NCBI RefSeq assembly: GCF_902764345.1
Contig: NZ_CACWVT010000005.1
Direction: 5' to 3' (one strand)
Source: an uncultured Ruminobacter sp.
GTDB taxonomy: Bacteria > Pseudomonadota > Gammaproteobacteria > Enterobacterales > Succinivibrionaceae
Length of the DNA stretch: 64,000 nt
Shown here: one piece after another, positions 55,999 to 57,342 of the stretch
How the letters are laid out: each line of letters starts with the position of its first letter
Position numbering within the stretch: position 1 is the stretch's first letter
The notes under the pieces: model-generated
Database searches by the model: none
The model's input: the letters and a program-made list of their open reading frames with translations, nothing else
What the model was told of the DNA's origin: nothing
Position numbers and translations under genes: made by a program

Positions 55999-57342
55999 AT
56001 GGCAAATGAAGCAGCTAAAGTTGAAGAAAATGGTATTACTGAATATATAAACCATCATTTGCAGTTCTTGCAGGTAGATTACTCAAACGGCTGGGTTATC
56101 AAAAACAGTAAAAAAGTTACAAGTGTGAGTGACTACACCAACTGTCTTGCAGACCACCAGACACCGGATCAGTGTTTGACAAAACTCGGTGCAACAGACT
56201 GTCGGATGTCAGATTTGTTTACCAGTACCTGTGTACCTTACGAATCAGGTGAAACTCAGGAAATCGTTGATTTTAATCTGATTAACCTCGATTCTTCAAT
56301 AATCTCAATATTTCTTGGCTTTTTAATTCTTGGATTATTCTGGATAGGAAAAAATTTGGAAAAGAAATCCAAGGTTCCAGGTAAATTCCTTACTGCCATA
56401 GAAATGGTCGTTGGTTTTGTTAACCAGTCTGTTAAAGATATTTTTCATGTTCAGAATAAATTGATTGCCCCGCTGGCTCTTACGGTATTTATGTGGGTGT
56501 TTTCAATGAATCTGCTTGATCTTCTTCCGGTTGATTTACTCCCGAACATCTGTAAGGGATTAGGGGTTCCTTACATAAGAGTCGTTCCTTCTGCGGATGT
56601 TAACGTCACCATGGGGATGTCAGTCACCATTTTCATGCTGATTCTTGCTTATACTTTCAAATATAAGGGAATAAAGGGATTTGTTAAGGATTATGCTCTG
56701 CATCCTTTCAATACATGGTTCCTGGCTCCTGTAAATATTTTCCTGGAAGGTATTTCCCTTCTGGCTAAGCCTGTTTCCTTAGGTTTGCGACTTTTTGGAA
56801 ACATGTATGCCGGTGAAACCATCTTTATTCTGATCACTATTTTCTTTGGCTTTGAACCTAGCGGTGATTCCATAATTTCCGTTATTACACTCAATGCTCT
56901 CCTAGGCATACTGTTCCTGTTGATGCATTTTAGAAGCAAGGATTCATCTGTTTCAAAGTCGATCTGTTCGTTCCTTTCTCTGGCCGCCATAGCTCTTGCC
57001 GTATTTGAGTCAATCTTAATGTACAACGGACAAGTTTCCGAAGAGTTAATAAAAGTATTTTATATGATTGATCTTTTCTTTGCTTTAGGCTTGCTTGTTC
57101 TGGCTTTCTTACGCAGGGAAAATAAAGGGAAGATGTGGCTATCAATTGTTACTGCAGCAGTTATCATCTGCGTATGTTTAAGCTCATCACTGCTGGGAGT
57201 GCTCCCTGTTGGGGCAATTTCAGGTATTATCCTCAATCTGGTGTGGGCTTTATTCCATATTCTTATTATATTCCTGCAGGCATTCATTTTTATGATTTTA
57301 ACTATAGTATACCTGGCTTCAGCCTCAACGACTGAAGAGTAG
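55999..57342 (+). CDS. atpB: F0F1 ATP synthase subunit a, unusually long (447 aa) with two insertions
   Basis: Conserved blocks are [74 protein letters not shown] (essential Arg) and [24 protein letters not shown]. Confidence 0.9.

Follow-up and report, generated by a model that had tools for sequence, protein, structure and literature searches.

The atpB gene of an uncultured Ruminobacter sp. was found to encode an F-type ATP synthase subunit a of unusual length, in which the short turn between the last two core membrane helices, aH5 and aH6, is replaced by a segment predicted to fold as a self-contained bundle of four up-and-down transmembrane helices. Comparisons with relatives show this segment to be a genuine, translated, clade-specific insertion in subunit a. 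Few membrane proteins are as well conserved as subunit a, the Fo of bacteria is generally described as a minimal ab2c(n) machine, and the insert would surprise ATP synthase structural biologists. The window referred to below is the whole stretch of DNA that was analysed, 64,000 nt of contig NZ_CACWVT010000005.1. The features of the gene are as follows, KD being the Kyte-Doolittle 19-residue maximum and helix directions being predictions.

55999..57342, + strand: atpB, F-type ATP synthase subunit a, 447 aa (ORF, PF00119, E. coli a match, AF2 core)
56716..56847, + strand: helix aH5, aa 240-283, with Arg264 (= E. coli R210), Asn268 and Glu273 (AF2 helix; residue invariance)
56839..57219, + strand: insert proper, aa 281-407 (alignment breaks at query 280 / E. 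coli 226 and query 408 / E. coli 233)
56863..56934, + strand: inserted helix A, aa 289-312, periplasm to cytoplasm (AF2 helix 289-312; KD 2.38 at aa 291-309)
56947..57027, + strand: inserted helix B, aa 317-343, cytoplasm to periplasm (AF2 helix 317-343, pLDDT ~90; KD 2.23)
57040..57111, + strand: inserted helix C, aa 348-371, inward (AF2 helix 348-371; KD 2.48)
57127..57195, + strand: inserted helix D, aa 377-399, cytoplasm to periplasm (AF2 helix 377-399; KD 2.46)
57208..57327, + strand: helix aH6, aa 404-443, with His420 (= E. coli H245) and Gln427 (= Q252) (AF2 helix; residue invariance)

The window protein is an unambiguous member of the subunit a family. The PF00119 profile matched the atpB product with 166 bits (cut-off 33.9) in two stretches split by the insert, and in a phmmer search against PDB, E. 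coli a was matched with an E value of 2.9e-76, query residues 92-280 aligning with E. coli residues 38-226 and query residues 408-443 with E. coli residues 233-268. Between the aligned blocks lie 127 residues in the window protein and 6 in the E. coli turn, a net insertion of ~121 aa. A preliminary description of this DNA had claimed a hydrophobic insertion of about 120 aa between the Arg helix (aH5) and the final helix (aH6), and the phmmer alignment bears this out as real and in frame; the interval proposed, 56836-57243 or aa 280-415, is correct on translation of the ORF. The conserved blocks quoted there do stand far further apart than in E. coli, although the E. coli spacing is 15 residues rather than the 17 given, a trivial difference. 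Continuity of the frame and strong conservation of the flanks had also been remarked on, and the flanking blocks were indeed 93-95% identical among relatives.

Pairwise identity among the insert-bearing lineages was 95% in aH5 and 93% in aH6, and R264, N268, E273, H420 and Q427 (E. coli R210, N214, E219, H245 and Q252) were invariant in alignments of 22 and of 80 sequences; judged by alignment, the proton-path residues of the window protein are all intact. An AF2 model of the full-length protein, built on the 80-sequence alignment with a mean pLDDT of 76, superimposed on chain 6oqr_a with a TM score of 0.82 (normalised to the target) and an rmsd of 3.7 Å, and reproduced the core with its long aH5/aH6 hairpin. 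Likeness to E. coli and other gammaproteobacterial subunits a (6OQR, 8DBW, 5T4O) extends to 58% core identity and the same six-helix core fold, and likeness to the E. coli F1Fo enzyme to the proton-path residues, the operon order, a b subunit of 156 aa and an Asp-type c. The two proteins differ in that E. coli a has 271 aa with a 6-residue aH5-aH6 turn, whereas the Ruminobacter protein has 447 aa with the predicted four-helix bundle at this place, and in that E. coli a lacks a Cys-rich periplasmic insertion of ~49 aa that precedes helix 1 in Ruminobacter.

Hydropathy analysis (Kyte-Doolittle, 19-residue window) gave maxima of 2.2-2.5 at aa 291-309, 322-340, 353-371 and 383-401, so that the "three to four" hydrophobic stretches of the preliminary description are present and number exactly four. 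The AF2 helices in this part of the protein were 240-283 (aH5), 289-312, 317-343, 348-371, 377-399 and 404-443 (aH6). In the full-length model helices A-C had pLDDT values of 76-90, helix D and the connectors values of 58-64; a model of the insert alone, built on four sequences, gave a four-helix bundle with a mean pLDDT of 80 and a pTM of 0.71, and helix D then scored 77-87. AlphaFold modelling and prediction of membrane topology, both proposed earlier as checks on the 447-aa protein, therefore predict four extra membrane helices. The net charge in the window is -2 before helix A, +2 in the A-B loop (+2 in all lineages), -1 in the B-C loop (-1 or -2 across lineages), +3 in the C-D loop (+2 or +3 across lineages) and 0 after helix D (-1 to +1 across lineages), and this -/+/-/+/0 pattern was kept in 5/5 lineages despite pairwise insert identities of 16-47%. 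The aH5-aH6 turn is periplasmic in the established topology of E. coli. With the turn in the periplasm, the signs of the loop charges fit the positive-inside rule exactly, and with four helices and the positive loops in the cytoplasm aH6 re-enters the membrane in its native orientation. The insertion had been called structurally surprising; the even number of helices and the positive-inside loop charges preserve the topology of aH6 and make it less disruptive than it first sounds. Helix C was the best conserved of the four (35% pairwise identity, with a Tyr and an L..A.L motif invariant), and together with the C-D loop, which adds an invariant Lys, it forms the most conserved part of the insert, while helix B was the least conserved and had no invariant residue.

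Identical or related proteins of 447-452 aa occur in independent assemblies from different samples, and clusters at 90% identity include members on 210, 91, 45, 35 and 34 contigs as well as isolate genomes. No direct DNA repeats beyond chance were detected in atpB and no internal protein repeat in the insert. An assembly artefact or duplication, which the preliminary description had named as a possible refutation, is excluded by the many independent contigs, the isolate genomes and the absence of repeats. An intein was rejected on its junctions, since the insert begins T-I-F-F and its C-terminal junction (...ILNLV|W) carries no His-Asn before aH6; there was no Hint or intein Pfam match in the window subunit a at E<=1, and the all-helical transmembrane prediction of the insert by AF2 also contradicts an intein. 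A group I or group II intron or other structured RNA was likewise rejected, with 0 Rfam matches at E<=1 in 56500-57700 and an open frame. The insert contained no stops or frameshifts in 5/5 lineages. In the comparison of the window with a closely related Ruminobacter sp. MAG (L009), dN/dS was 0.034 in the core, 0.26 in the insert and 0.12 in the N-terminal Cys domain, with dS equal in core and insert (~0.37-0.40 in both partitions); on these ratios purifying selection acts on the insert and is about eight times weaker than on the core. It is thus scarcely credible that the insert is unreal or missing from the mature protein, as an artefact, an internal duplication, an intron or an intein. Such a reading could draw on the odd location and on signs of misassembly in the neighbouring atpE region, but it is opposed by the independent assemblies and isolate genomes, by the lack of any DNA or protein repeat, Rfam family or intein junction residues, and by a dN/dS <1 together with a transmembrane hydropathy that is kept in the + frame.

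The distribution of the insert was examined in a scan of relatives limited to one genome per species. Protein searches returned only four clusters of long-form subunit a (447-452 aa), with 99, 72, 62 and 59% identity to the window protein; the remaining Succinivibrionaceae matches had 317-363 aa and no insert. The window protein was 94% identical over its N-terminal 135 aa to that of the MAG L009 and 68% identical to that of the type strain R. amylophilus DSM 1361 (L010), by which the window belongs to Ruminobacter. All long forms carry 118-120 extra residues at a single alignment point. The nearest short relatives have ~9 extra residues at the turn, with a motif xIPVGGxxG, and the turn of Succinivibrio is of E. 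coli length. In a tree built on 266 ungapped core columns the insert-bearing lineages (n=5) were monophyletic in 200/200 bootstraps, and the insert was missing from all relatives examined outside the Ruminobacter clade. This distribution argues for a single gain, in an ancestor common to Ruminobacter and to two uncultured rumen lineages allied with it (L011, L012). Relatives had earlier been suggested as a check, and the insert proved common to the whole Ruminobacter clade including cultured strains; isolate genomes that carry it include R. amylophilus (SFP56095.1 / UniProt A0A662ZIM4), the type strain R. amylophilus DSM 1361 and Ruminobacter sp. RM87 (WP_369791976.1). Databases annotate these long proteins plainly as ATP synthase subunit a. 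G+C content of the insert tracked that of each genome, at 36-41% in low-GC lineages and 72% where the locus has 60% G+C, and a composition that follows the genome indicates an old resident rather than a recent import.

Two further observations concern the same clade and family. One uncultured insert-bearing lineage (L011, L004; P0003) has ~60% G+C with an atpB GC3 of 0.81-0.88, against 34-40% in its sister lineages, which by composition is a large shift inside a narrow clade; the record of this high-GC lineage is labelled "uncultured Enterobacterales". In two insert-free proteins, P0018 and P0021, the turn is extended by ~17 and ~24 residues, respectively (alignment columns ~420-440), and the aH5-aH6 turn seems especially prone to changes of length in this family.

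A source for the insert was sought at the levels of sequence and fold. A search with the insertion alone, which had been recommended at the outset, compared an insert profile with 1.84 billion representative proteins and returned three matches, all of them atpB or atpB fragments of the same clade. AtpI (~140 aa, four predicted helices) and two c hairpins (four helices) resemble the insert in size or helix count, yet hhalign comparisons of the insert with each of AtpI, subunit c and the a core, and between its two halves, gave probabilities <=0.4%; there was no signal of a derivation from any of these proteins or by a 2+2 internal duplication. Pfam searches with the insert alone gave sub-threshold matches to assorted multi-helix families (best E 9e-4, all below gathering scores), and a Foldseek comparison of PDB with the insert-only model returned only generic helical bundles, none with E <3. 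At the observed rate of change of the insert any signal of its source would be erased.

The gene order at the locus is gidA-gidB-parA-parB-atpI-atpB-atpE-atpF-atpH-atpA-atpG-atpD-atpC, the ORFs of the atp operon spanning 55571-62940. Relatives have the same atp order with Pfam-typed neighbours, and the operon of the window is otherwise intact apart from atpE. Three neighbours of atpB are of interest here.

55571..55993, + strand: gene in the atpI position, 140 aa, hydrophobic, directly upstream of atpB (ORF; same position in all relatives)
57360..57558, + strand: atpE (subunit c), single and disrupted (comparison with L008, L037 and L009)
57581..58051, + strand: atpF, subunit b, 156 aa (ORF)

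The gene in the atpI position had no Pfam match even at E<=1 and, if it is AtpI, is a very divergent one. In the window atpE a 20-nt deletion removes the GIGILGG motif and leads to a stop at 57423-57425, and a second deletion, of 9 nt, lies near the 3' end. Among near-identical strains that share the b sequence of the window, two intact atpE copies were present in 7, one in 2 and a run of N in 1, and two contigs, L007 and L008, break off inside atpE or immediately ahead of it. The window atpE corresponds to the one-copy version (L037) minus two segments, both located where the tandem copies differ. The broken gene is most likely a collapsed tandem repeat with consensus errors, though it might instead be a true pseudogene; a real break would mean a dead enzyme in this strain. 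A tandem atpE, encoding two almost identical Asp-type c subunits of 75 aa, was found in every insert-bearing lineage (5/5; L001 6990-7472, L004 3534-4042, L006 1554-2030, L009 7189-7677, L010 8894-9376 and L033-L042), whereas the insert-free Succinivibrionaceae examined (L013-L018) had a single atpE in 6/6 cases. The co-occurrence of insert and duplication may reflect a shared ancestral accident or a functional link.

For placement of the insert, structures from other organisms provide a guide. In Bacillus PS3 a single membrane helix of subunit b lies packed on aH5 and aH6; the periplasmic half-channel passes between aH5 and aH6, and in E. coli Leu229 of a abuts Gly9 of b (PMC6377231). The position of E. 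coli a Leu229 falls inside the turn replaced by the insert. Taken together, the Leu229/Gly9 contact and the packing of b in PS3 place the insertion point at the peripheral tip of the hairpin beside the b helix and not at the a/c interface. The preliminary description had the insertion exactly in the hairpin that contacts the c-ring; it does lie between aH5 and aH6, but at the periplasmic turn of the hairpin tip, off the helix surfaces that face the c-ring. By analogy the insert probably lies next to the atpF product in the membrane. The N-terminal membrane helix of b is conserved between insert-bearing and insert-free relatives and shows no obvious co-variation with the insert.

A close parallel is offered by elements that keep the b helix in place on aH5/aH6 while staying outside the proton path: the supernumerary subunits of mitochondrial enzymes (f, 8/A6L, i/j, k) and, in PS3, an enlarged aH3-aH4 loop (PMC6377231). 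The mitochondrial extras are separate polypeptides and the PS3 element is a soluble loop, whereas the Ruminobacter helices are fused in cis inside subunit a. Profile searches and Foldseek revealed no relationship of sequence or fold between the insert and any of these, and the likeness that we infer would be one of function only.

The explanation that we consider probable overall is that the translated, clade-specific insert forms a four-helix bundle serving as an accessory stator module fused in cis. The insert entered subunit a of a working F1Fo ATP synthase in a single event, in the common ancestor of Ruminobacter and its allies among the rumen Succinivibrionaceae. As predicted, it forms a four-helix bundle within the periplasmic aH5/aH6 turn, aH6 keeps its native direction and the path through Arg264, Asn268, Glu273, His420 and Gln427 is left untouched. 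The bundle would lie on the outside of the stator, by the hairpin tip to which one b membrane helix docks (its position relative to the core, b and the c-ring being deduced from the structures above), would buttress the tip and the b contact by analogy with the elements just described, and would presumably take no part in proton translocation. Its sequence evolves fast under selection mainly for hydrophobicity, length and loop charge, and it is inherited together with the tandem duplication of the c-subunit gene.

The low conservation of the insert fits a passenger as well as it fits a functional module, and the chief competing explanation is a nearly neutral one: a one-time hydrophobic insertion into a tolerant surface turn would have become locked in place because loss of a helix would invert aH6 and kill the enzyme, so that selection acts on staying at four membrane helices and not on any functional contribution. 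The insert evolves ~8 times faster than the core (dN/dS 0.26 vs 0.034), identity between lineages falls as low as 16-30% and hardly any residue is invariant, nothing beyond length, hydrophobicity and loop charge is retained, the turn is variably longer in insert-free relatives too (~9 to 24 aa), and no homologue or recognisable domain of the insert was found, all of which such a passenger would show. The near-constant length of 118-120 aa across lineages with saturated synonymous sites and a change from 34% to 60% GC is harder to reconcile with it, as are the invariant residues in helix C and the C-D loop and the prediction by AF2 of a packed bundle rather than independent helices. We regard the neutral explanation as possible but tentative; the insert is most likely a cis-fused accessory stator module and possibly nearly neutral.

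A bolder version of the stator reading would make the bundle a functional supernumerary stator element evolved in cis and the first bacterial counterpart of the mitochondrial accessory Fo subunits, which clamps the b helix and the hairpin tip or mediates contacts between synthases or with other complexes, and whose evolution was coupled to a doubling of the c-gene dosage in a rumen host, a strict anaerobe, where the enzyme may run mainly as a proton pump; this is speculative, and we hold it rather doubtful. Further removed is a new function beyond stabilising the stator, such as oligomerisation of the synthase, docking of another membrane complex or tuning of periplasmic proton entry, perhaps linked to the duplicated c genes. 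It is general knowledge that mitochondrial supernumerary subunits around subunit a serve dimerisation, and insert and tandem atpE co-occur perfectly (5/5 insert-bearing vs 0/6 insert-free lineages). The insertion is moreover periplasmic and near the aH5/aH6 gap by which the periplasmic half-channel reaches the ring (PMC6377231). Against this, polar or charged residues are not conserved within the inserted helices, the near-identity of the two c proteins suggests an effect of gene dosage, and insert and duplication may just share an ancestor; a new function of this kind is quite improbable.

Among the PDB subunit a chains matched (207-312 residues), 0 had extra helices in the aH5-aH6 turn, and searches of the literature on Ruminobacter and on subunit a insertions yielded no description of a membrane insert at this place. 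The preliminary description would have been overturned by a lineage feature already described; the insert is lineage-wide across the Ruminobacter clade, but no published description was found. It is a new structural variant within the subunit a family, confined to one rumen clade that includes a cultured type strain. As a natural four-helix variant at the tip of the rotor-facing hairpin, it shows that the turn tolerates a whole membrane domain, and it illustrates from nature how accessory Fo elements can come about through insertion, without recruitment of a new subunit. Because the type strain R. amylophilus DSM 1361 carries the insert, direct study is possible. The practical effect is modest: annotation pipelines label the protein "F0F1 ATP synthase subunit A", and quality filters based on length may misflag it.

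A second insertion in the same protein went unmentioned in the preliminary description.

56083..56271, + strand: N-terminal periplasmic insertion, aa 29-91, cysteine-rich (C49, C59, C68, C78) (alignment gap vs E. coli)

This segment is ~49 aa longer than its E. coli counterpart and lies between an HHL motif and the first membrane helix. It is common to all Succinivibrionaceae subunit a matches examined and absent from E. coli; Succinimonas, Succinivibrio and unnamed Succinivibrionaceae MAGs share this N-terminal Cys-rich domain with Ruminobacter, and Succinimonas, Succinivibrio and related MAGs differ from Ruminobacter in having proteins of 317-363 aa with no transmembrane insert and a single atpE. 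Each of the four cysteines was kept in all or nearly all of 80 sequences, NSKKV and SDLG were recognised as motifs, and AF2 predicted small strands and helices with a pLDDT of 72-79. The segment is possibly a disulfide-bonded periplasmic mini-domain.

Another odd subunit a was encountered on an ENA contig (P0022, 358 aa). It is E. coli-like with an internal duplication of ~87 residues over the helix 2-4 region, which is probably a misassembly in its metagenome and is unrelated to the Ruminobacter insert.
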